Virus record (IMG/VR): IMGVR_UViG_3300008117_000088
Span: 1-64,000 of that record
Strand: one strand, 5' to 3'
DNA: 64,000 nt
Source of the DNA: a virus
Part shown: positions 1,671 through 11,781 of the stretch, piece after piece
How the letters are laid out: each line of letters starts with the position of its first letter
Numbering within the stretch: position 1 is the stretch's first letter
Made by a program: the position numbers and the translations under genes
Notes under the pieces: generated by a model
The model's database searches: none
What the model saw: the letters and a program-made list of their open reading frames with translations, nothing else
Told to the model about the DNA's origin: nothing

Positions 1671-1825
1671 TAATAACCTCCAAGGCATTGATCTGAATGC
1701 GTATGTATCCAGCGGGACTCATTGTACGCTTCCTTATTCGGAGCATATAACCAGAATCCACAAGCGCCACATTGACCACTCCACTCTTCCGCAAAGAAGT
1801 CGTACTCCATAAGCTTGTATCGCAT
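1670..1825 (-). CDS. 51-aa Zn-binding hypothetical protein (CGAC...HTH...C)
   Basis: Translated by hand: MRYKLMEYDFFAEEWSGQCGACGFWLYAP...HTHSDQCLGGY. Confidence 0.55.
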   Translation of the reverse strand: MRYKLMEYDFFAEEWSGQCGACGFWLYAPNKEAYNESRWIHTHSDQCLGGY

Positions 1826-1900
1826 GGGGGCCGACTCTACTCCCTAGGCTACTGTGTGACAAATTGAGGTGTTACCTACATTTGAGACCTGGCCCCCCTT

Positions 1901-1999
1901 TGTGATTTTGGCCACATTTAACCCTGGGGGGGTCAGCTTTGTGAGATGCGCCACATTATTACAAACCTACTTCCGCTAACTCAGCGTGTCTGCCATAGT
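1901..1999 (+). promoter_or_regulatory. early promoter module 1 with two CRP-like boxes
   Basis: TGTGA-N6-CCACA at 1901-1916 and 1940-1955; AAACCTAC; TTCCGC (1971)-17 bp-CATAGT (1994). Confidence 0.7.
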
Positions 2000-2041
2000 T
2001 CAACCATCAACACCGACCGAGTGTTGGTAAAGGGGCAACAA

Positions 2042-2326
2042 ATGGCAATCACAGCAGAAAACGCAAAGCGCATGATGTTAATCACCTCAAGCGCAAACCT
2101 CAGCGACGAGGACTTCCCGTTCTTTCGCAATCACATCACATCATTCAGCGAGTGGCTGGTATCCGAGGCAATCAACGACCTAGTGCGACTAGGTGTAGAT
2201 AAAGACCTTGCTTCCTCAATGCTCAACACCATCTCCCACATCTCAAGCATGGCGGGCGCAACCAATCTCTTTGATTACGGCGTGAGTGCCACAATCTTTG
2301 AGGAAAACGGACTTCGTGATGCGTAG
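2042..2326 (+). CDS. early hypothetical protein
   Basis: SD AAGGGG before ATG 2042. Confidence 0.7.
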   Translation: MAITAENAKRMMLITSSANLSDEDFPFFRNHITSFSEWLVSEAINDLVRLGVDKDLASSMLNTISHISSMAGATNLFDYGVSATIFEENGLRDA

Positions 2327-2480
2327 TCCTACTTACTATCGAATTCGAACACTTGTTCGGGTCTTATTCTGGACATCATTAGTCATAGGTATCTATTACC
2401 TAGCCACTCACATCAACTGGGTTGGCGATGGATACTGCTGGGGAACAATCACCGAGTGCTTCTTCGAGGAGGGGAAATGA
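2319..2480 (+). CDS. small membrane protein
   Basis: Hydrophobic segment LVRVLFWTSLVIGIYYLA; overlaps upstream stop. Confidence 0.65.
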   Translation: MRSPTYYRIRTLVRVLFWTSLVIGIYYLATHINWVGDGYCWGTITECFFEEGK

Positions 2481-2587
2481 CAGACGGCGAGATGATTGAC
2501 CAAATCATGGAATGGATCAACACGGACGGCGAACAGCTATCTGATGAAGATGTCATGAACAACATTAGGGAAATGCTCAAACAATAG
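2477..2587 (+). CDS. 36-aa acidic protein MTDGEMIDQIMEWINTDGEQLSDEDVMNNIREMLKQ
   Basis: ATGA overlap; SD GGAGGGG. Confidence 0.65.
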   Translation: MTDGEMIDQIMEWINTDGEQLSDEDVMNNIREMLKQ

Positions 2588-2602
2588 AGTTGCCCCACAA
2601 CA

Positions 2603-2634
2603 GCGGAGCGCCTGCCAATCGGTGGGCGCTTCGT
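2603..2634 (+). terminator. hairpin ending cassette 1
   Basis: GCGGAGCGCCTGCC-AATC-GGTGGGCGCTTCGT. Confidence 0.6.
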
Positions 2635-2648
2635 CTTGCTCGGCGAAA

Positions 2649-2789
2649 TGTTTGTGTTGGTCAGCCCACCCACCCTGACTCAACCCTAAAGGGAATAGGG
2701 GGGAGAGAAGCTCGAACAGATGTTCGGCCAGGAATGTGATGTAGATAACAACAAAGCCTATTCCGCTAACTGTGAGAAAGTGAGAAGGT
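2649..2789 (+). promoter_or_regulatory. early module 2
   Basis: TGTTTGTGTTGG 2649; CCCACCCACCC 2665; TGTGA-N6-TAACA 2735; TTCCGC 2761-17-GAAGGT 2784. Confidence 0.75.
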
Positions 2790-2837
2790 TCTCCTATCGG
2801 TGAAACAGAAGTAGCCGATAAGAAAGAAGGGGCAAAG

Positions 2838-3302
2838 ATGACCAAAGTCATCACTTACGGCTCAGCAGTAGAAGCGATAGACGCTCTCATGCTGGAGCAT
2901 GTAAATAACGCACCACTATCAGCAGACCTCGCTGAAGTTGTGGCGTTCGCAGTAAATAACGACCTACAAGTTCGGGATTATATTCTCGGATTACTACCTG
3001 ATGTTCTAACGGCACAAGGAGCGATTAGTTTCGTATCCGACCTGTTGCCACTCGTAGCGGAAGCCGACCGAGTTCCGTTCTACTCCGTATTATCCGCCTT
3101 CTACTCTGAAGCAGGGGATAACGACCTCGCCCACGCTTCACTATTCACAGCGCAGAGTCTAAATCCTGATTACTCTCTCGCTAAGTTGCTCTCTCGGGTT
3201 CTTGCCTCGGGTATGCCAATGGATTTCGCAAGCATGCGTGCGGAACTTCATCCGAAGGTTGTCGAAACCCTTACGGAGAATAGGGAACTGGTCATTTCCT
3301 AG
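2838..3302 (+). CDS. helical hypothetical protein (possibly DUF4192-like)
   Basis: SD GAAGGGG; VRD and YSLAKLL..L..G.P pattern. Confidence 0.65.
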   Translation: MTKVITYGSAVEAIDALMLEHVNNAPLSADLAEVVAFAVNNDLQVRDYILGLLPDVLTAQGAISFVSDLLPLVAEADRVPFYSVLSAFYSEAGDNDLAHASLFTAQSLNPDYSLAKLLSRVLASGMPMDFASMRAELHPKVVETLTENRELVIS

Positions 3303-3310
3303 AACTCACG

Positions 3311-3342
3311 CCGACCCCCACTCGCAAGGGTGGGGGGTTCGG
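3311..3342 (+). terminator. GC-rich hairpin with GCAA loop
   Basis: CCGACCCCCACTC-GCAA-GGGTGGGGGGTTCGG. Confidence 0.6.
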
Positions 3343-3371
3343 TGGATCGCGCCGGCCGCAGCTCGCGCAAA

Positions 3372-3494
3372 TGTTTGTGTTGAGACCCGCCCACCCTAGT
3401 CTCTGACTTACTTCGTAAGGGAGTTGTTGAGAGAGTTCGTGTGGCGCACATCACATCAAACCTACTTACGCTAACTAACGAGATAAGCAAAACT
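3372..3494 (+). promoter_or_regulatory. early module 3
   Basis: TGTTTGTGTTG 3372; CCCGCCCACCC 3386; TGTGG-N6-TCACA 3440; TTACGC 3466-17-AAAACT 3489. Confidence 0.75.
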
Positions 3495-3532
3495 AAGAGT
3501 GTTGGTGAAGGTCATCAACGGAAGGGGCAGTA

Positions 3533-3910
3533 ATGAAAGTAAAAGTGCCTGTAAATCTGGTAATCGCTGGTCTGGAACGCAGAGTAGCAGAAAACCGAGA
3601 GGTATCAGCACGCAACCAAATCGTTCGTGATAAATACGAGCAAGACAAAAAATCATGGGCAGAAGCGGTTGGCAAACTACCACTAGAAATAGATGATGTT
3701 AGTTATTCCACATGGCGAAACTCAGTATCTATTTCTTACAAAGTTCCAAACGGAACACGCATACCTGATGAACCACGACTTGGCGATTTAGAAAGCGAGT
3801 TGGGTAGCCATGAGGTTGATGAAATCGCTAATGCTGTTCGTATCTTAGGCATGAGCGAAGATGAGTATGTATCAGCAAGCACCATGAAGGAAATCGGAAG
3901 GTATCTCTAA
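3533..3910 (+). CDS. early hypothetical protein
   Basis: SD GAAGGGG; ORF track. Confidence 0.75.
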   Translation: MKVKVPVNLVIAGLERRVAENREVSARNQIVRDKYEQDKKSWAEAVGKLPLEIDDVSYSTWRNSVSISYKVPNGTRIPDEPRLGDLESELGSHEVDEIANAVRILGMSEDEYVSASTMKEIGRYL

Positions 3911-4395
3911 TGGGGTTGGACATGTATCTAGGCGCTCGCTCTACAAATAGCGAGTATCAAGAGTTGGGTTATTGGCGCAAGGCTAACGCTGTTCATGGTT
4001 GGTTCGTTCGTGAGTGCGCTAATGGATTAGATGAGTGCCAAGAGATTTTTGTATCTCGTGAGCAACTTCTAAAACTCCGTTCGGATTGTAATAATGCTCT
4101 CGCAAACCGAGAGAACGCAGTTCCGAATAATGAGGACAATGTAGTTATCAAGCAACCTGTTGGTAGCGGTCAAGACCTTGCTCAGTTCATCATGGAGAAC
4201 ATGAAAGCCGAGCAACAAAAGATTGGCACTACTCTGGTGAGTGATGACCCACTTCAGCCAACGGCTGGTTTCTTCTTCGGCTCAACCGAGAAAGATGAGT
4301 GGTATTACAACGACCTGATGGAAACCATTGACATCATAGATAAGGCGCTCGCCTTAGGTGATGATTGGCAAGTTATCTACCAAGCAAGTTGGTAG
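3910..4395 (+). CDS. conserved phage protein (MGLDMYL...YWRKANAVHGWF...YQASW family)
   Basis: Recognisable conserved phage motif; TAATG coupling. Confidence 0.8.
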   Translation: MGLDMYLGARSTNSEYQELGYWRKANAVHGWFVRECANGLDECQEIFVSREQLLKLRSDCNNALANRENAVPNNEDNVVIKQPVGSGQDLAQFIMENMKAEQQKIGTTLVSDDPLQPTAGFFFGSTEKDEWYYNDLMETIDIIDKALALGDDWQVIYQASW

Positions 4396-4404
4396 GTTGC
4401 CCCA

Positions 4405-4439
4405 AGCGAGTTGCCCCCGAAAGGGGGCGCTCGTTTTTT
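4405..4439 (+). terminator. intrinsic terminator
   Basis: GCCCCC-GAAA-GGGGGC stem plus T-run. Confidence 0.8.
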
Positions 4440-4464
4440 AGGGAACGCCAAACCCGAAGCCACT

Positions 4465-4582
4465 TGTTTGTGTTGGCTCCCACCCACCCTGAGCCTGATC
4501 CCTAAAGGGATAGGGAAAGAGAGCTCGTGTGATGTGGATCACTACAAAGCCTATTGTGCTAACTAGTGCTAGGCATTAGATT
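4465..4582 (+). promoter_or_regulatory. early module 4
   Basis: TGTTTGTGTTGG 4465; CCCACCCACCC 4479; TGTGA-N6-TCACT 4528; TTGTGC 4554-17-TAGATT 4577. Confidence 0.75.
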
Positions 4583-4619
4583 GGGTCTAGTTAGGAGATA
4601 CCTAACGGAAGGGGCAGAC

Positions 4620-4721
4620 ATGATGCTAATGGCGACATGTGTAGAGTGCGAGAGGGTGTTCAACCTTCTTGATGAGAATGATGCGAATGAGGTGGCATAT
4701 GGACACGATTGTGAGTCCTGA
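4620..4721 (+). CDS. 33-aa Zn-binding micro-protein (CVEC...GHDC)
   Basis: SD GAAGGGG; MMLMATCVECERVFNLLDENDANEVAYGHDCES. Confidence 0.7.
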   Translation: MMLMATCVECERVFNLLDENDANEVAYGHDCES

Positions 4722-4929
4722 GTCTCAAAAGTTTTACTCTAAGTATTATGGCGATTTAGTGGGCGCCACGATTCTTAGTTATGACGGGATGGTAGAGGAT
4801 GAGTTTGGAATGTATCCATTCCCTACATTTACTGTCCGGTTCAAGGATGGGCAGAAAGGTCAGATTCAGATCTATGCTGATGAGGAGGGTAATGGTGGCG
4901 GGTTCATCTCCGGATTAGCCTTGCCATAG
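4699..4929 (+). CDS. hypothetical protein (DEEGNGGG motif)
   Basis: ORF track; start either 4699 or GTG 4711. Confidence 0.65.
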   Translation: MDTIVSPESQKFYSKYYGDLVGATILSYDGMVEDEFGMYPFPTFTVRFKDGQKGQIQIYADEEGNGGGFISGLALP

Positions 4930-4938
4930 TAGATTTCG

Positions 4939-5037
4939 AGGTAGGTGCGTCAAAGCGGTTTATTTCCTTTCTTGCTCCCGCCAAGCGCATTCATGATCCG
5001 CCACACTTCTCGGGGAGATGTAGCTGCGTGCCTACCT
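4939..5037 (+). ncRNA. candidate structured 3'-UTR/small RNA
   Basis: AGGTAGGTGCG (4939) can pair with CGTGCCTACCT (5027), enclosing further stems and a pyrimidine loop. Confidence 0.35.
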
Positions 5038-5070
5038 ATTCCACAGCTGAGGCCGCCGGCCGCGGGGAAA

Positions 5071-5184
5071 GTTTGTGTTGGCCCACCCGCCCCGTTAAGG
5101 GAGTTGTTGTTATTCAGCTGTGATTCAAATCACAAGAGAAACTTTACAAACCTACTACCACGAAAGAGATATACATGAGAAGGT
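5071..5184 (+). promoter_or_regulatory. early module 5
   Basis: GTTTGTGTTGG 5071; CCCACCCGCCCC 5082; perfect TGTGA-N6-TCACA 5119; TACCAC 5156-17-GAAGGT. Confidence 0.7.
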
Positions 5185-5223
5185 TCACCTACCTAGTCAG
5201 GGCGACTAGAGAAAGAAGGGGTT

Positions 5224-5832
5224 ATGGGTTATTACATTGACCTAGTAGATGCAGAGTGGGAGATAACTGAATCTCCTGAATCTCTTGCAACTATTAGAGA
5301 GATGCCAACTAAATACCATGCTATTAAGCGTGGTGGCTCATCCAATGGCGAGAAGTGGTTCTCCTGGATGAATGATACTGATATCGAAACCGCGGAGACT
5401 GTAGAGAGTGTCTTCAATCAACTCGGATTCGAGACTGAAAAAGTAGACGGCGGGTTCAAACTTGCTTACTACAATAGCAAAACTGGTCAAGAAGATTTAT
5501 TTTTGGCGGTTATGGCTCCCTTTACCAAGGATGGTTCATACATTGAATGGCGAGGTGAGGACGGCGCGTTATGGAAGTTTGAAATCCACAACGGTCGCAT
5601 GTTTCGCTCCGAGTCTGAGATTATCTGGACCAACTCCCAACCGTATTCTTACTGGCACTATGATTTAGAGCCAGCAACAATGCAAGGACGTCAGATTAAT
5701 ATTGACCCACTTGCTCCCGCTGATGAGTTAGCGCAAGCGCTCAAAACTGCTAAAGAATGGGATGATGCGGACCAGGCATACTATGCCAAACTCCGTGCTG
5801 AACGTGAAGAGGCAGAGAAAGCCAACGCGTGA
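5224..5832 (+). CDS. early hypothetical protein (GSYIEWRGEDG motif)
   Basis: SD GAAGGGG; ORF track. Confidence 0.75.
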   Translation: MGYYIDLVDAEWEITESPESLATIREMPTKYHAIKRGGSSNGEKWFSWMNDTDIETAETVESVFNQLGFETEKVDGGFKLAYYNSKTGQEDLFLAVMAPFTKDGSYIEWRGEDGALWKFEIHNGRMFRSESEIIWTNSQPYSYWHYDLEPATMQGRQINIDPLAPADELAQALKTAKEWDDADQAYYAKLRAEREEAEKANA

Positions 5833-5963
5833 GAACTTTGCACGTATGTTGCTCGCACATACAGCATGAGAACTATTGCCCATGCTGTATGAGCGAGTGC
5901 GAAGCAGAGAAGGATTCTGGAATGCAAGGTCCTTACTGCAAGTGCAACAGATGTAGCAGCTAA
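5829..5963 (+). CDS. possible 44-aa Cys-rich micro-protein
   Basis: GTGA overlap; 9 Cys; overlaps strong hairpin 5851-5898. Confidence 0.4.
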   Translation: MRTLHVCCSHIQHENYCPCCMSECEAEKDSGMQGPYCKCNRCSS

Positions 5964-6001
5964 GGCTGCTGATGATCCAAGCTATGCCCCGCTAGGATCC
6001 A

Positions 6002-6041
6002 AACGAGCTCGGCCGCTGCCCCGGCCGGGCATCGTTTTTTT
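6002..6041 (+). terminator. intrinsic terminator
   Basis: CTCGGCCG-loop-CGGCCGGG stem plus T7. Confidence 0.75.
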
Positions 6042-6073
6042 AGGGCGCCAAATCTTATTTCCCGAATGCCTAA

Positions 6074-6210
6074 TGTTTGTGTTGGCCCGCCCTCCCCATT
6101 TATATACTAGGGAATATTCATATATTCATTCAGCTGCTGAAGAGAGCTGCAGTCATGTGATGTAAATCACTACAGACCTACTTACGCTAAAAGAGAGATG
6201 GACCTATGGT
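6074..6210 (+). promoter_or_regulatory. early module 6
   Basis: TGTTTGTGTTGG 6074; CCCGCCCTCCCC 6086; TGTGA-N6-TCACT 6156; TTACGC 6182-17-TATGGT 6205. Confidence 0.75.
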
Positions 6211-6253
6211 TCAGTCACTGGTTACAGATAGTAACTAAGTGAAGGGATAGAGA

Positions 6254-6508
6254 ATGCGTACTCTGAGAGAGATAGCGCTGGAGATAGATTGGGAATGCCG
6301 GGGTAAGTCTTGGTATCCATATGCAGAAGCATATGTCACTCCCATGATGTCACTCGATACCATGCAAGACCGGTACTTCGAGGATTCAGCAGAATCAATA
6401 GTCTCCTATGCACTGGCTAATCTCCAGTCATGGAGAGGAGACAATGCCCGTCGAATTAAGGCGGAACTCAATGCAATGCTCAAGTCAGCAAGGAAGGTGA
6501 ATGCATGA
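6254..6508 (+). CDS. conserved phage early protein (WRGDNARRIKAEL motif)
   Basis: SD GAAGGG; recognisable small phage family. Confidence 0.75.
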   Translation: MRTLREIALEIDWECRGKSWYPYAEAYVTPMMSLDTMQDRYFEDSAESIVSYALANLQSWRGDNARRIKAELNAMLKSARKVNA

Positions 6509-6957
6509 CAGCTGAGACATACAATCCGCATCAGCTAGTAACGTTGCGGGATATCAATGACGGGGCCGAAAGCTTCGTCATCCATAAAGCTACAGACCTC
6601 GAGTGGAAGCTCGAGACAGCTAAGCTCAATCGCCGGGAGCTGGATACAGCTCAAGCTAAGATTGGAGCTATCACTTCGGAGATGACCAGTGAAAGCTGGT
6701 ATCACTCGAATACAGATAAAGATGAAGTACTAAGTAAGCTCGAAGAGATTCTGGGCGTCAACCCTACAGCTACGATCAGCATCACAGCTACGATCGAGGT
6801 GTTCATTACAGCTGAGGTGCCGCTGAAAGAGCTCGACAGCTTCGATTCAGATTCACTGATCCACGACTCGATCACGATAGATGCGAGCGCTTGGGGATCA
6901 GAAGTCAATGTAGATGACTGGAATCTACAAAGCTCAGATTGGGAGGAACAGAGCTAA
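6505..6957 (+). CDS. acidic hypothetical protein (AGCT-saturated gene)
   Basis: ATGA overlap; ORF track. Confidence 0.7.
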   Translation: MTAETYNPHQLVTLRDINDGAESFVIHKATDLEWKLETAKLNRRELDTAQAKIGAITSEMTSESWYHSNTDKDEVLSKLEEILGVNPTATISITATIEVFITAEVPLKELDSFDSDSLIHDSITIDASAWGSEVNVDDWNLQSSDWEEQS

Positions 6958-7008
6958 CTCAGAGACAACGCACCCCGGGCCAGCTTCGCGGCGGCTCGGG
7001 GCTCGCGT

Positions 7009-7122
7009 TGTTTGTGTCGGCCCACCCACCCCATAGGGAATATATATAAGCTGCGGGCTCGGCCTGGTGTGAGATAGATCACTGCAAACCTACTTACACG
7101 TAGAGGGAGAGTCATATACCTT
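7009..7122 (+). promoter_or_regulatory. early module 7
   Basis: TGTTTGTGTCGG 7009; CCCACCCACCCC 7021; TGTGA-N6-TCACT 7068; TTACAC 7094-17-TACCTT 7117. Confidence 0.75.
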
Positions 7123-7144
7123 AAGCAATGAAGAGAGGGGTCTC

Positions 7145-7846
7145 ATGAAACTTAAACGGTCCAAAGATCGTAAAGTGGCTAATAGTCTTACTCCTAATGG
7201 GAAGACTGCAAGAATTGCTAATTCTTTCGGTTTACCCGCGGGGAGAGAGTACAGCTGCCCGGCGCAGACTTCAATTTGCGCTCGCATATGTTATGCCGGC
7301 AAGCTGGAGAAAATCTATCCAACAGTGCGTACTAACCTTATGCACAATTGGGAGATGCTTAAAGATGCAGATCATGACACGATGGAGAGTCTACTCGATG
7401 AGATGATTGTGGAATTCAAGGCGGAATGTGACAAGTGGTCCGCGCCTAAAGAATTTCGCATTCACTGGGACGGGGACTTCTTCTCCTCAGATTATGCATT
7501 CGCATGGAAGCATGTGATCATGAACCATCCGGACGTTCGCTTCTGGGTCTACACACGTGTAGAGTCTGCAGCTTATATGCTCCGGAACCTAGAGAATCTC
7601 ACTTTATACTTCTCCACTGATAAAGAGAATCTCGAAAGCGCTCAACGCCTACAGCGTGAAGGCGTGTTACTGGCAGGATTACACGATACTTTCGATCAAG
7701 CCAAGGATATGCTCCTGGCGCTAGGCGAGAGATCTGCAAAGTGTCCCGAGCAACGCAAGCAAATTCCCCTGGAAGGCGCCTGCATTGCATGCAAGATTTG
7801 CGTCAAGGGCACTAACAATATAACGTTCAGCATTACTAAGAGATAG
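7145..7846 (+). CDS. GP88-family protein (radical-SAM-like Cys motif)
   Basis: SFGLPAG...SCP...C..ICYA, RIHWDGDFF and WVYTR motifs. Confidence 0.75.
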   Translation: MKLKRSKDRKVANSLTPNGKTARIANSFGLPAGREYSCPAQTSICARICYAGKLEKIYPTVRTNLMHNWEMLKDADHDTMESLLDEMIVEFKAECDKWSAPKEFRIHWDGDFFSSDYAFAWKHVIMNHPDVRFWVYTRVESAAYMLRNLENLTLYFSTDKENLESAQRLQREGVLLAGLHDTFDQAKDMLLALGERSAKCPEQRKQIPLEGACIACKICVKGTNNITFSITKR

Positions 7847-7854
7847 GGATCAAT

Positions 7855-8124
7855 ATGGGATACACAACAGCGTTAGACTTAGCCGGCCAAATTCACCTGG
7901 ATCAAGGCCTGGCCCATCACTTAACCGGCAATCATTATCCGCCGGTACCGTTAACGATGGTCGATCCATGCAAAGCTGCAATCGATGCGTACCTGGATGA
8001 AGACTACGACCGGGAGATAGAGCTACCGGATCCAATTACGTATAAGGGCCGCACTACAGCGCCGGCACGGGCGATAGTAGATCAGCATCACTTGCACCCA
8101 TTCGTAGAATCACTGCAAGAATAA
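7855..8124 (+). CDS. conserved actinophage protein (HLTGNHYPPVP...HHL)
   Basis: ORF track; motif typical of small phage proteins. Confidence 0.7.
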   Translation: MGYTTALDLAGQIHLDQGLAHHLTGNHYPPVPLTMVDPCKAAIDAYLDEDYDREIELPDPITYKGRTTAPARAIVDQHHLHPFVESLQE

Positions 8125-8170: not shown

Positions 8171-8214
8171 GGAGAAGCCGCGTTGTTTCAGGTCAGCGCG
8201 GCTTTCTTCTTTTT
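8171..8214 (+). terminator. intrinsic terminator
   Basis: GAAGCCGCGTTG...CAGCGCGGCTTTC plus T-run. Confidence 0.75.
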
Positions 8215-8245
8215 AAAAGGGAAATGCCTACTCCCAAAAGCCAAA

Positions 8246-8331
8246 TGTTTGTGTTGACCCTCCCACCCCTCATCCCTTCGGGATAGGGTGCGGCCGAAAA
8301 GTCAAGTAGCTTTGCTGTGATATTGCTCACA
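8246..8331 (+). promoter_or_regulatory. module 8, left half
   Basis: TGTTTGTGTTG 8246; CCCTCCCACCCC 8258; perfect TGTGA-N6-TCACA 8316. Confidence 0.7.
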
Positions 8332-8334
8332 CAG

Positions 8335-8485
8335 TGAGAGAGAGGCTCGGCCAGGCCGCCTATTCCAGTTAGTTTCACGTGAAACAAGCGATCTTCGAAG
8401 AAGAGAGCATGAATAAGAGAGATAGCTATTGGCAGAGAGAGCAGAGAGAGAAGAGAGAAGCCAAAAAGAGAGATAAGAGAGATAG
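8335..8485. repeat. GA-rich low-complexity tract
   Basis: Repeated GAGAGA/AAGAGAG; partial complement CTCTCTCTCTGC near 8666. Confidence 0.6.
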
Positions 8486-8711
8486 CCGACATTAAATGTC
8501 GACAAATCGACTAGTCGATTAGGCTACTGCATTGACCGGTCATGGCCTCCCCGGCTGTGCAGCCAGCTTTACAGCCTCGATCGGCTGAAACTATCCGATA
8601 TCACTGCAAGCTAATTGCTACCCAATGGCTGGCAGGGCAAAGAGATGTCAGTCCCTCTCTATATCCTCTCTCTCTGCATGTATAAGCCAATCTATTTGGG
8701 GCCGATTTTTC

Positions 8712-8803: not shown

Positions 8804-9076
8804 ATGAGTCTCAAATGGGAACTCGATTATCACCAAGGTAAGTACAACGAAGCCAAGGCTAAGGAAAACGAAGCGTTCCACGCAATCCTCAAGATCATCA
8901 CTGATTTAGGCGGAAAGCGTGAGCACGTAGACAAGGCGATCGGTCTATGGGTAGATGGCACTTTGGCATCCAACGATATGGGATGGCACAGAGCATTTAG
9001 GTCTGAGGCTGAGGACAAGATTCAAGAACTTCGCAAGTTAGTCGATATGGATGAAGACGCGGAGTTGTTGAAATGA
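8804..9076 (+). CDS. hypothetical protein
   Basis: SD GAAAGG; ORF track. Confidence 0.7.
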   Translation: MSLKWELDYHQGKYNEAKAKENEAFHAILKIITDLGGKREHVDKAIGLWVDGTLASNDMGWHRAFRSEAEDKIQELRKLVDMDEDAELLK

Positions 9077-9180
9077 CGGGCAGACAAGTAGTCTGTCCTA
9101 CCTGCGGTAAAGAATTGGAGGTGAGGTCGGGCATCTTTGCCCACCAAACCCTCGCCCGCCATATGAAGGAGCATGAATGA
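9073..9180 (+). CDS. 35-aa C2H2-type zinc-finger micro-protein
   Basis: MTGRQVVCPTCGKELEVRSGIFAHQTLARHMKEHE; ATGA overlaps at both ends. Confidence 0.7.
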   Translation: MTGRQVVCPTCGKELEVRSGIFAHQTLARHMKEHE

Positions 9181-9431
9181 GCACTGATGATATATCTGTA
9201 GGCGATGCAATTATTGTAAAGGCGCTGTTGAACGGCACCTTTACTGATCCCGATGGAAACAAAGCAACATTAACTGTTAAGGGTTTTGTTGGTGCAAATA
9301 TCATTGCAGCTCGTGTGGCGTTGCTCACGCAACCACGCCCACTATCTGAAAGTGATATCACTGAGATTGTTAAGTTTCTCAAGGATGCAGAGACTGCATT
9401 GAACATGCTTGAGGACAAGGAACAAGAATGA
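9177..9431 (+). CDS. hypothetical protein
   Basis: SD AAGGAG; ATGA overlaps. Confidence 0.7.
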   Translation: MSTDDISVGDAIIVKALLNGTFTDPDGNKATLTVKGFVGANIIAARVALLTQPRPLSESDITEIVKFLKDAETALNMLEDKEQE

Positions 9432-10063
9432 AAGCGGTGTCGTTATTCGCCGGGGTCGGAGGTTTCGATCTTGCATTAGAACGTGCGGGTGTACCTGTTG
9501 TTGCATCTGTAGAGATTGATAAGCATGCACGTGGTGTACTGCAACAACAATTTCCTAACACAACATTATTGGAGGATGTAAAAAATGTCACAGGCGATCA
9601 ACTTAGAGAACTCGGATTCGAAGGTTCTGACGGAATTATTGTCGGAGGCTTCCCGTGTCAAGACCTCAGCGTTGCTGGTAAGCGAGCAGGTCTTGCTGGA
9701 GGTAGAAGCGGACTCTTCTGGGAAATCTGTCGCATCCTCGACGAAACGAAAACGAAATGGTTCGTCCTCGAAAACGTCCCCGGTCTTTTGTCATCTAACG
9801 AAGGACGAGATATGGGAACCGTCATCCAAGCGTTGGTTGAGCGCGGGTATGGGGTCGCATACAGGATTCTTGACGCTCAATACTTTGGAGTCGCCCAAAG
9901 AAGACGTCGTATCTTCATTGTCGGATGTCTTGGAGACAACGGGCGAGCACCTGCAGAAGTACTTGCTCTCATCGAAGGCATGCGAGGGTATTCTGAGGCG
10001 ATCAACCAAAAAGGGAAAACAACTTCCTCCCTTGCTTCACTCAGCTTTGGAGAACATGACTAA
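9428..10063 (+). CDS. DNA (cytosine-5) methyltransferase, N-terminal catalytic part (motifs I-VIII)
   Basis: FAGVGG (I), GGFPCQD (IV), ENV (VI), QRRRRIF (VIII). Confidence 0.92.
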   Translation: MKAVSLFAGVGGFDLALERAGVPVVASVEIDKHARGVLQQQFPNTTLLEDVKNVTGDQLRELGFEGSDGIIVGGFPCQDLSVAGKRAGLAGGRSGLFWEICRILDETKTKWFVLENVPGLLSSNEGRDMGTVIQALVERGYGVAYRILDAQYFGVAQRRRRIFIVGCLGDNGRAPAEVLALIEGMRGYSEAINQKGKTTSSLASLSFGEHD

Positions 10064-10082
10064 TGTGGTTCATAAAGAGTAG
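9585..10082 (+). CDS. overprinted MTase beta-like subunit in alternative frame
   Basis: SSLSDVLE...KYLLSSKACEGILRRSTKKGKQLPPLLHSAL, recalled pattern of M.EcoHK31I-beta-like polypeptides; true start uncertain. Confidence 0.6.
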   Translation: MSQAINLENSDSKVLTELLSEASRVKTSALLVSEQVLLEVEADSSGKSVASSTKRKRNGSSSKTSPVFCHLTKDEIWEPSSKRWLSAGMGSHTGFLTLNTLESPKEDVVSSLSDVLETTGEHLQKYLLSSKACEGILRRSTKKGKQLPPLLHSALENMTNVVHKE

Positions 10083-10602
10083 GCGTGCAAAGGACGTGGA
10101 AGATTATGAAACTTGGGTTGATGCGGAGGTTACTCCTACATTGAACGCATTCGATAACAATGGCGATACACGATCAACGGTGCTTATCTTCTACACTGGT
10201 ACCTTTGGTGAAGTACGAGTACAGGGAGATGTGATTAATACGTTGCCGGCAAAGATGGGAACGGGTGGTAATAACACTCCTATGATGGCATTCCCTATCC
10301 AGGGAACAATCATCGGTCGCAGTGATACTGCTGGACCACAAGGCAAAGGATTTGGTGATTCTACTGATCCTATGTACACAATAGATACCGTTGGTGGTAA
10401 TGCGGTTGCAACTCCTGCAATGGTGCGACGTTTAACTCCGTTAGAATGTGAGCGCCTACAAGGGTTTCCCGATAACTGGACTGCATCACAGTCTGATTCA
10501 CAACGATATAAACAAATGGGCAATGCGGTAGCAGTACCGGTTGTTCAATGGATAATAGATAGGTTGGTTGACGTTGAAACAAGATTTAATGCAAATGCTT
10601 AA
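10063..10602 (+). CDS. cytosine MTase C-terminal part (TRD repeats plus motifs IX-X)
   Basis: RRLTPLECERLQGFP and YKQMGNAV; TAATG coupling. Confidence 0.88.
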   Translation: MWFIKSRRAKDVEDYETWVDAEVTPTLNAFDNNGDTRSTVLIFYTGTFGEVRVQGDVINTLPAKMGTGGNNTPMMAFPIQGTIIGRSDTAGPQGKGFGDSTDPMYTIDTVGGNAVATPAMVRRLTPLECERLQGFPDNWTASQSDSQRYKQMGNAVAVPVVQWIIDRLVDVETRFNANA

Positions 10603-10771
10603 GTCTCAAGTAAAAGACATGTATGGAAAGCACGGCTTAAAAGCTGTGGATGAGTATTTAGATCAAAACTACAAGTTAATACCTTGGGAGCAATGCTACG
10701 AGTGCGACAAGATTACGCCCCGTGATCCACGCACACTAAAGTGTTTCTTTGAGGAGGATCATGAGTTCTAA
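10595..10771 (+). CDS. small Cys-containing hypothetical protein
   Basis: ORF track, start trimmed. Confidence 0.55.
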   Translation: MLKSQVKDMYGKHGLKAVDEYLDQNYKLIPWEQCYECDKITPRDPRTLKCFFEEDHEF

Positions 10772-11174
10772 ATGGGACTATGCTTTTTACGATCGTAACT
10801 CACAGCCTTGCACTTTAAAGGAATGGAGCGAAGAATTCGGTAGTCCATATGCATTCAAGAAGGATGTGTTTGTAAAAGATTATCGAGTATTAACCAAGTG
10901 GACCGGAGTTGATATGCCGGAATACGATTGGTTGCAAAAGAATCAATTCAGTTCTAAGAACTGGAAACCAAACTCTAAGCCATCACCGTTTGTTTCATAC
11001 GTATGGAATGCTGACGGGGAAATCGTAGAGTCAAAGCGTTATCAAACTATTGAACGTGCATACAAAGGTCATGCTGAATTAGTTCAGCGCTTTGCTAAGG
11101 AAGACCTTGGTGTGTATCATGTGCCTGTAGTCCTACAAGATATGGAGGAAACAAATGGCGAAGAAAAAGATTAA
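10761..11174 (+). CDS. hypothetical protein
   Basis: SD GAGGAGG before ATG 10761. Confidence 0.7.
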   Translation: MSSKWDYAFYDRNSQPCTLKEWSEEFGSPYAFKKDVFVKDYRVLTKWTGVDMPEYDWLQKNQFSSKNWKPNSKPSPFVSYVWNADGEIVESKRYQTIERAYKGHAELVQRFAKEDLGVYHVPVVLQDMEETNGEEKD

Positions 11175-11463
11175 AGTCTTTAAAGTTTCGCTTACAAACA
11201 ACTTTGAAAAAGGTGGCGGTTGGCTGTGCCACGTTCGTTGTTATGATGAACGTGATCAGTACGAAGCATCTTTTACAGATGTAATTGGTCAGTCAGACTA
11301 TTCTGCTTGGAAAAACCCTTCAGCAGCTAAGCGTCACGCTAAAGCTATGGCTCAGAAATGGACCACCAAGAAAAGCGTAAAGATGATTGCTGGTACAACT
11401 ACCGATTCAAAGGGCAAGCCTGCAACATTTCATGGCGAGTTTACTTTTAAAGTCGACGCCTAA
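11155..11463 (+). CDS. hypothetical protein
   Basis: SD GGAGG; ORF track. Confidence 0.7.
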   Translation: MAKKKIKVFKVSLTNNFEKGGGWLCHVRCYDERDQYEASFTDVIGQSDYSAWKNPSAAKRHAKAMAQKWTTKKSVKMIAGTTTDSKGKPATFHGEFTFKVDA

Positions 11464-11520: not shown

Positions 11521-11781
11521 TTAGTACGACAATATTTCTGGCAGTACTTCTTTACCTATAATTCTGTGCTTTCTTCTGTACTCATCTCTTTGATCTGTCG
11601 TAGTGCCCGCCCATATTCCTTGAACTTTATTCTCTATTGCGTATTTAAAACATTCATCTTGAACTGGGCAGTTTTTACATATTCTCTTCACATGACCCAA
11701 CTGTTGATAATGCATTCCTTCATCAGGAAAGAACAATTCAGTGTCAAGTCCTAAACATGAAGGGGTGCCACTAAAGCGCAT
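11521..11781 (-). CDS. whiB: WhiB-family transcription factor
   Basis: C...ELFFP...CKNCPVQDEC...GIWAG motif. Confidence 0.9.
   Translation of the reverse strand: MRFSGTPSCLGLDTELFFPDEGMHYQQLGHVKRICKNCPVQDECFKYAIENKVQGIWAGTTTDQRDEYRRKHRIIGKEVLPEILSY

Follow-up and report, generated by a model that had tools for sequence, protein, structure and literature searches.

IMG/VR virus record IMGVR_UViG_3300008117_000088 is the record of an uncultured freshwater phage, of 96,030 bp with a 114-bp terminal repeat, and its first 64 kb (positions 1 to 64,000) form the window analyzed here. On the + strand of this window, an open reading frame (ORF) at 6505..6957, encoding an acidic early protein of 150 amino acids from a conserved family found only in phages, carries 20 copies of the 4-bp palindrome AGCT together with 8 TCGA and 5 GATC. 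This ORF, referred to below as the array gene, is the second member of a two-gene cassette: an upstream gene for an 84-amino acid protein (6254..6508, +, phrog_13953) ends in a stop codon that overlaps the array-gene start (ATGA), and uses 0 of its 11 possible AGCT sites. A promoter-like site, called by consensus match alone, precedes the cassette (6099..6126, +), and a terminator-like hairpin lies at its end (6982..7003, +). The + strand genes at 1.9–11.5 kb are arranged as short promoter/terminator cassettes, and nearly all other genes of the phage lie on the − strand.

Judged from its sequence, the array gene is a genuine protein-coding early gene. We recovered 25 metagenome homologues of its product, with 45–98% identity and 24 invariant positions, and remoter homologues were also recovered with their DNA. 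The gene is probably fast-evolving and dispensable.

The numbers of AGCT, TCGA and GATC given for 6505–6957 in an earlier note, which was made from the letters of the window alone, were exact. As that note had also stated, the sites do not keep to one frame: AGCT spans three codon phases (5 AGC-T, 6 xAG-CTx and 9 xxA-GCT), and no single amino-acid repeat accounts for the excess. AGCT averages 3.2 per kb over the genome, the richest other 453-bp segment holds 6, and 284 sites lie elsewhere in the genome, outside the array gene. When all 256 4-mers were scored across 122 ORFs, AGCT in 6505–6957 was the top genuine outlier (z = 8.7); the only higher score belonged to a spurious − strand ORF (8193–8492) created by an intergenic AG/GAGAGA repeat at 8432–8460. 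An unbiased k-mer scan identified the 4-mer AGCT itself as the enriched unit, neither a shorter nor a longer word, and the enrichment of CTCG and GCTC in the gene reflects overlaps of AGCTCGA. Dynamic programming over all synonymous encodings gave a maximum of 23 AGCT for the encoded protein, of which 20 (87%) are used. Across the 122 ORFs, the median of used over possible sites is 9%, and the second-highest ORF reaches 33%.

Resampling of synonymous codons from genome usage yielded 3.7 ± 1.8 AGCT, and no more than 13 in any of 20,000 draws; usage taken from the early block, from its unpurged part or from three neighboring genes yielded 3.4–3.75 (maximum 10–11). Permutation of the gene's own synonymous codons, a null that preserves its atypical codon usage, yielded 10.0 ± 2.1 with a maximum of 19 (p < 1e-4). 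The excess survives every one of these codon nulls. Since own-codon permutation reaches 10.0, half of the excess stems from context-dependent codon choice: Lys, for example, is AAG ahead of Leu and AAA ahead of Ala. TCGA and GATC, too, are in excess compared with genome or early-block usage (p about 0.0005–0.007), but not compared with the within-gene permutation. Amino-acid order is also biased. The AGCT-capable dipeptides of the protein allow 23 sites, compared with 14.4 ± 2.1 for shuffled protein (z = 4.1), and similar biases were seen in homologues P0003 and P0005 and in the L004 allele (z = 3.0–3.5), although the protein-level count of possible AGCT, which was applied to about 20 intermediate homologues (P0003, P0004 and P0007–P0024), is a weak proxy.

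These results bear on the possibility that the sites have no function and are a by-product of atypical codon usage, a foreign cassette, a repair bias of the very-short-patch kind or an antisense gene. Codon usage in the array gene is indeed atypical (Leu CTC/CTG/CTA, Ser AGC, Ala GCT), and the cassette looks mosaic: at the DNA level, 6254–6957 is 60–80% identical to loci L004/L005, between flanks of 93–97%. The terminator module is 93% identical to these loci; the adjoining GP88-family gene, in a comparison over 6241–7420, is 90–97% identical to L004 and 77–87% to L005, and the GP88 gene adjoining the L004 allele is 95% identical to that of the window. Because its identity falls far below that of its flanks, the cassette appears to be either an exchanged or a fast-evolving unit. 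However, permutation of the gene's own codons yields only half of the observed count (p < 1e-4 in the window, L004, L006 and L024 alleles), codon choice depends on context, and the upstream gene, inherited together with the array gene in this mosaic cassette, is free of AGCT. A repair bias would affect the whole genome, in which AGCT is depleted, and the phage has no Vsr homologue. As to an antisense gene, the antisense frame aligned with the codons stays open over 111 codons in L004:201–644 (p = 0.01 by synonymous permutation) and for 117 in L024:4166–4624 (p = 0.07), but for only 64 codons in the window allele (p = 0.12), and dual coding would not favor one palindrome in three phases; an overlapping antisense gene was rejected as an explanation of the AGCT sites. 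We conclude that a non-adaptive by-product is largely refuted by the within-gene permutation, and regard the lack of any function as highly improbable.

Several more specific ideas were discarded. Hypermutation by 5-methylcytosine deamination would erode the sites; besides, the upstream gene has diverged to the same extent without carrying any AGCT. If a host nuclease caused a homing-like allele drive, site-free alleles would be favored. A primase hot spot at GCT was set aside given that 20 of the 22 GCT have A in front, and an intercalator sponge given that ACGT and TGCA show no enrichment.

The AGCT excess is present in close homologues as well. The L004–L006 alleles, with 66% protein identity to that of the window, use 15–16 of 22 possible AGCT (their flanks hold about 6 per kb), the L024/L025 alleles (38% identity) use 14 of 18, with 3.0 expected, and the L027 allele, which is truncated and N-terminally different (50% identity over residues 52–149), uses 6 of 14, with 2.0 expected. 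Few individual sites are common to the alleles: the window (20 sites) and L004 (15 sites) share 9 positions, and the window and L024 share 2. No flank consensus was found around 52 pooled AGCT sites. Because positions turn over and lack a flank consensus, it is AGCT density on which selection acts, and these diverged alleles provide strong evidence of positive selection for it in the array ORF. All 18 homologue loci outside the AGCT-rich clade contain no AGCT; with one representative taken from each of five lineages, about 5.9 sites were expected and 0 observed (Poisson p about 0.003). The AGCT-bearing alleles group together as a single supported clade in the gene tree. The AGCT-rich trait probably goes back to one event and has persisted from then on; a convergent origin is unsupported, all AGCT-rich alleles falling within this single clade.

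The same word is avoided elsewhere in the phage. A site-free zone close to the array gene, noticed earlier, is real: the ORFs in 1946–6508 contain 0 AGCT in 2,842 coding bases (about 15 expected), and in the six early ORFs at 1946..5832 (+) most 4-bp palindromes are depleted. The intergenic modules within 1700–6508 retain 14 AGCT in 1,980 bp. GGCC in the same region is found 0 times in coding and 11 times in intergenic DNA; the palindrome purge is thus limited to ORFs. Several of the upstream intergenic AGCT sit just 5′ of TGTGA-type boxes in repeated promoter modules. Genome-wide, relative to expectation, AGCT belongs to the three scarcest 4-mers in each of the five genomes that bear the methyltransferase described below (observed/expected ratios [O/E] 0.69, 0.70, 0.61, 0.50 and 0.44), and GGCC is likewise among the most under-represented. 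The non-palindromic words AGCC/GGCT are not avoided in these five genomes (O/E 1.09–1.30). Avoidance of AGCT with AGCC/GGCT spared is a signature of type II restriction pressure.

The phage has one split C5 cytosine methyltransferase (9428..10602, +), the sole DNA methyltransferase family found in the genome; searches of the phage genome for N6/N4, D12 and phage Dam methyltransferase families and for Vsr found none. The split enzyme is present at the corresponding position in every AGCT-rich relative whose contig extends far enough. G001, the complete sister genome (107,545 bp, the genome of L003), lacks it, and it had no match in the ±5-kb flanks of the AGCT-free loci L028–L032; contigs L007–L016 were not searched. 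On the loci compared, the AGCT-rich trait is confined to the methyltransferase-bearing clade. When 79 loci with this methyltransferase family were scanned, AGCT-dense windows were found only in the array-gene family and in one unrelated ORF, L107:5339–5722. This ORF, of 127 amino acids, has 8 AGCT in 384 bp, and 10 in the surrounding 450-bp segment, as raw counts; it lies just upstream of a 290-amino acid gene on a GC-richer contig with a homologous methyltransferase.

The target of the split methyltransferase could not be read from its PDB relatives, the alignment being limited to the motif IX–X region. Word counts suggest a candidate. In G001, CCGG occurs 0 times (133 expected; O/E 0.00) and CGCG once (86 expected), whereas the O/E of CCGG is 1.09 in the genome of the window and 0.58–1.09 across methyltransferase-bearing relatives. 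Because CCGG is absent from the methyltransferase-less G001 yet at expectation in the genome of the window, the enzyme may protect CCGG/CpG-type words.

Downstream of the array gene lie a GP88-family gene (7145..7846, +; 60 palindromes observed compared with 44 expected) and a gene for an 89-amino acid protein (7855..8124, +) with 6 CCGG (0.7 expected) and 4 GGCC (0.6 expected). These two genes hold 75–119 palindromes per kb in all methyltransferase-bearing relatives, compared with 30–53 in the sister clade, where homologues of the 89-amino acid gene hold 30–46. The enriched palindrome varies by lineage, between CCGG/GGCC, GATC, TCGA and CGCG/GCGC. Homologues of the 89-amino acid gene carry 8 GATC at L027:5709–5984, 6 GATC and 6 TCGA at L033:1076–1351, and 5 TCGA at L035:2957–3241. 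The L035 GP88 gene (L035:2248–2952, the same locus as G006:5599–6303) has 10 CGCG and 10 GCGC in 705 bp, with 0–3 and 0–6 in other GP88 genes, respectively. Gene order in the palindrome-rich zone, 6505–8124, is conserved in relatives. Small clade-specific genes at 8804–9431 and 10749–11463 had no family match.

The host is probably an actinobacterium, to judge by gene content: relatives of the GP88-family gene were found only in Mycobacterium and Streptomyces phages, and the window also carries a WhiB-family gene (11521–11781, −) and a gene for a DUF4192 protein (2838–3302, +), both typical of Actinobacteria and their phages. DNA and protein searches of the GenBank phage collection gave no match, and neither did an IMG/VR scan with a single protein as query.

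Since only one ORF is filled with sites, beginning at codon 2 and ending with the stop codon, irrespective of position and phase, the signal might be read in RNA. AGCU would then be the word of an endoribonuclease, either a phage shut-off timer, such as the phage-encoded RNase RegB of T4, or a host toxin, and 20 sites would make the mRNA of the ORF very short-lived or turn it into an abundant decoy substrate. A sponge is quantitatively likelier as RNA than as DNA, transcripts being multi-copy; AGCT is missing from early ORFs and retained in largely untranscribed or structured intergenic modules; and the array-gene mRNA folds slightly better than shuffles (z = −2.3). On the other hand, the enriched words are all palindromes, both here and in the neighbor genes of relatives, and an RNase needs no palindrome. 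The genome-wide avoidance is palindrome-specific too. In addition, cleavage would also destabilize the co-transcribed upstream ORF. MqsR cuts at GCU, a word that shows no enrichment in the gene unless an A stands before it (2 of 22 are without the A), and we know of no AGCU-specific RNase; an Rfam search gave no match. We therefore consider an RNA-level signal unlikely.

A second alternative is an array for a DNA-binding factor outside restriction-modification: a replication origin, a packaging (pac) site or an injection stop of the kind proposed for T5 at the end of its first-entering DNA. Origins and pac sites often lie inside genes (P1 pac has seven GATC in 161 bp of pacA; PMC10028697), and the array is found 6.8–7.2% of the way into the record, immediately after the early ORFs that are purged and at the start of the order-conserved palindrome-rich zone. 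The earlier note had placed the sites at 6588, 6608, 6618, 6638 and 6648 in 10-bp register. These positions are correct, but the periodicity near 10–10.5 bp is no better than random placement (p = 0.44 in the window allele, 0.24–0.26 in the L004/L006 alleles), and the periodicity test revealed no one-face helical spacing of AGCT sites at multiples of about 10.5 bp. No iterons or tandem repeats were found in the array gene, the longest tandem or dispersed repeat being a single 12-bp duplicate. Its composition is 48% G+C, with zero AATT, TTAA and TATA, and it shows no combination of an AT-rich unwinding element with 12–22-bp consensus repeats, the hallmark of iteron origins. A longer motif and a flank consensus are lacking as well, and AGCT positions are not conserved between alleles. 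Terminase large-subunit domains lie at 76,970–78,238 (−), about 25 kb from the array gene around the circle, and the large terminase gene at 76.9–78.5 kb argues that the array gene is not the small terminase. Moreover, the product is too acidic for DNA binding, and the sister clade retains the gene with zero sites. For an injection stop in particular, the 114-bp terminal repeat leaves coordinate 1 not assured as a physical end. An array of this type is, in our judgment, about as improbable as an RNA signal. The earlier note's proposal of a DNA-level function overlaid on the gene holds in that the signal lies atop a real gene and exceeds codon usage; the helical phasing of a reader-loading array, one form that it was given, is absent.

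The product of the array gene has an isoelectric point (pI) of 4.2 and a net charge of −20, and all 12 family members tested are acidic (pI 4.05–4.3, net charge −19 to −24). AlphaFold modeled a beta hairpin, a 30-residue helix and a second helix, with a predicted local distance difference test score (pLDDT) of 81. A two-copy model reached an interface score (ipSAE, interaction prediction score from aligned errors) of 0.46, compared with 0.00 for the best control, with runs agreeing in at least 97% of contacts and pLDDT of at least 82; in proteins of known structure, this ipSAE mark was attained by 20 of the 30 solved as pairs, compared with 1 of the 23 solved as single chains. The product is thus predicted to form a homodimer. 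Searches of Pfam, PHROGs and NCBIfam found no function. Foldseek gave no match at E ≤ 0.001 in PDB and only uncharacterised phage proteins in BFVD, a wide VIA-align search returned only generic helical hairpins (best Z 4.7), and ESM Atlas only unnamed viral clusters. A small-terminase identity, suggested by low-scoring Foldseek matches (probability of about 0.1 at most), was dropped with the terminase large subunit located at 77–78 kb.

Density-only selection, the restriction of co-enriched words to palindromes, the lineage-specific pile-ups in neighboring genes and the avoidance elsewhere together argue for recognition of double-stranded DNA by restriction-modification-type enzymes. The reading that we favor, at roughly even chances, is that 6505–6957 is a selected, DNA-level array of AluI-type (AGCT) restriction-modification sites. 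Selection has driven synonymous sites, and in part dipeptide content, to near-maximal AGCT. The unit under selection would be the double-stranded 4-bp palindrome, with density counting and not position, spacing or flanks. The array would consist of targets of a host AluI-type enzyme, the class whose pressure causes AGCT avoidance elsewhere. It lies just past the first early ORFs, which are free of sites, and before the cytosine methyltransferase of the phage itself, and would engage the AGCT enzyme pair at this one defined place. We infer that the agent is a restriction-modification enzyme, and the benefit to the phage is inferred likewise. A broader generalization is possible but doubtful: one or more early genes in phages of this clade would be "restriction-site collectors", carrying host-targeted palindromes close to the theoretical limit (AGCT here; CCGG/GGCC, GATC, TCGA or CGCG/GCGC in neighboring genes of relatives), and would either bait host enzymes at the DNA level or sense host modification epigenetically.

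A number of points weigh against this interpretation. No AGCT-specific enzyme was identified in phage or host. AGCT is still avoided despite the methyltransferase, and comparative avoidance points to CCGG/CpG words, not AGCT, as what that enzyme protects. Because one gene-tree clade holds all AGCT-rich alleles, the link to the methyltransferase comes down to a single evolutionary event. A 20-site, single-copy DNA array is a poor titrant, and a double-strand cut is normally lethal. The 284 other AGCT in the genome, 14 of them in intergenic modules upstream of the gene, make a "first encounter" bait hard to justify. Gene-body cytosine methylation has, to our knowledge, no established effect on bacterial transcription. 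No fold match from Foldseek against PDB and BFVD or from VIA-align backs a DNA-mimic function, and helical phasing is absent. The restriction or methylation link made in the earlier note is indirectly supported, in that the enriched words are 4-bp palindromes and AGCT is avoided elsewhere; a simple decoy is argued against by the single copy of the DNA, by the other AGCT in the genome and by those in the upstream intergenic modules.

If the array does consist of restriction-modification sites, it could act in three ways. As a methylation-state sensor or checkpoint, its 20 sites would report the protective AGCT mark and thereby control the early gene or a coupled step; this variant carries the most weight of the three, though less than half. 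Close behind comes a bait that captures the nuclease beside a gene for an acidic, dimeric and possibly DNA-mimicking product. We weighted the sensor slightly above the bait, since it would avoid the lethality problem and has partial precedents in P1 pac and GATC clusters. The least probable of the three, with a minor share, is that the cognate methyltransferase loads onto the array or is sequestered by it.

The mark that restriction-modification leaves on phage genomes is, in the textbook case, avoidance of restriction sites. Here, the phage avoids AGCT across its genome and has none in its first early ORFs, but one gene stands at 87% of the maximum, and saturation is kept down to 38% protein identity with almost complete turnover of sites. 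We know of no described case of a restriction word selected to near saturation in a phage gene, and a limited literature search for such positive selection found none. The array gene offers a clean natural case in which DNA-level selection overrides codon choice and even amino-acid order. A bait or methylation sensor, if true, would be an additional move in the phage-host arms race, and used over possible sites per gene would then be a simple signature for metagenome searches. The broader collector idea, if true, would amount to a counter-restriction or host-memory strategy without described precedent, the mirror image of site avoidance.

Among known systems, the T5 pre-early region lacks restriction sites, an example of avoidance in first-entering phage DNA. 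The early ORFs described here are similarly purged of 4-bp palindromes including AGCT, which implies the same selective agent, and the sister-clade homologues, with 0 AGCT, fit ordinary avoidance. In the array gene, by contrast, the sign is reversed, with 20 sites observed compared with 3.7 expected. Ocr (T7 gp0.3) and ArdA are DNA-mimic anti-restriction proteins whose targets are type I enzymes rather than type II enzymes with 4-bp sites. Like them, the array-gene product is small, strongly acidic and early (encoded in the + strand early block), and is modeled as a homodimer; unlike them, it lacks any similarity to these proteins that we could find in sequence, profile or fold. The Ocr and ArdA genes are not known to us to carry pile-ups of sites.

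A closer parallel is offered by P1 pac, where the GATC sites inside pacA are Dam sites and their methylation controls cleavage (PMC10028697, PMC12707154). In both cases, a 4-bp palindromic methylation or restriction word is packed densely into phage coding DNA through synonymous choices, and in both the phage has its own methyltransferase. The array differs from P1 pac in its word, AGCT and not GATC, in spreading 20 sites over a whole 453-bp ORF without a hexamer repeat structure, and in site positions that are not conserved between alleles. Furthermore, the product is acidic and early, and its gene is distant from the terminase genes; the array is neither in nor beside a small-terminase gene and sits in an early promoter/terminator cassette. 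The methyltransferase is here one split C5 enzyme, whose candidate targets are CCGG/CpG words rather than AGCT.

GATC clusters are known from oriC, where SeqA binds, and from coding sequences of E. coli and Salmonella, and the regulatory effect of the coding clusters is itself a hypothesis (PMC493266, PMC2912659). These clusters, with 4 or more sites, differ from the array, which uses 87% of the sites that its protein permits. Helical phasing, a feature of SeqA/oriC arrays, is absent here, and GATC is not avoided in E. coli, whereas AGCT is otherwise avoided in the phage genome. Common to both are a short methylatable palindrome, its non-random occurrence in coding DNA and a proposed action by methylation state. 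Methylation-site clusters in coding DNA are thus the nearest known kind to the array.

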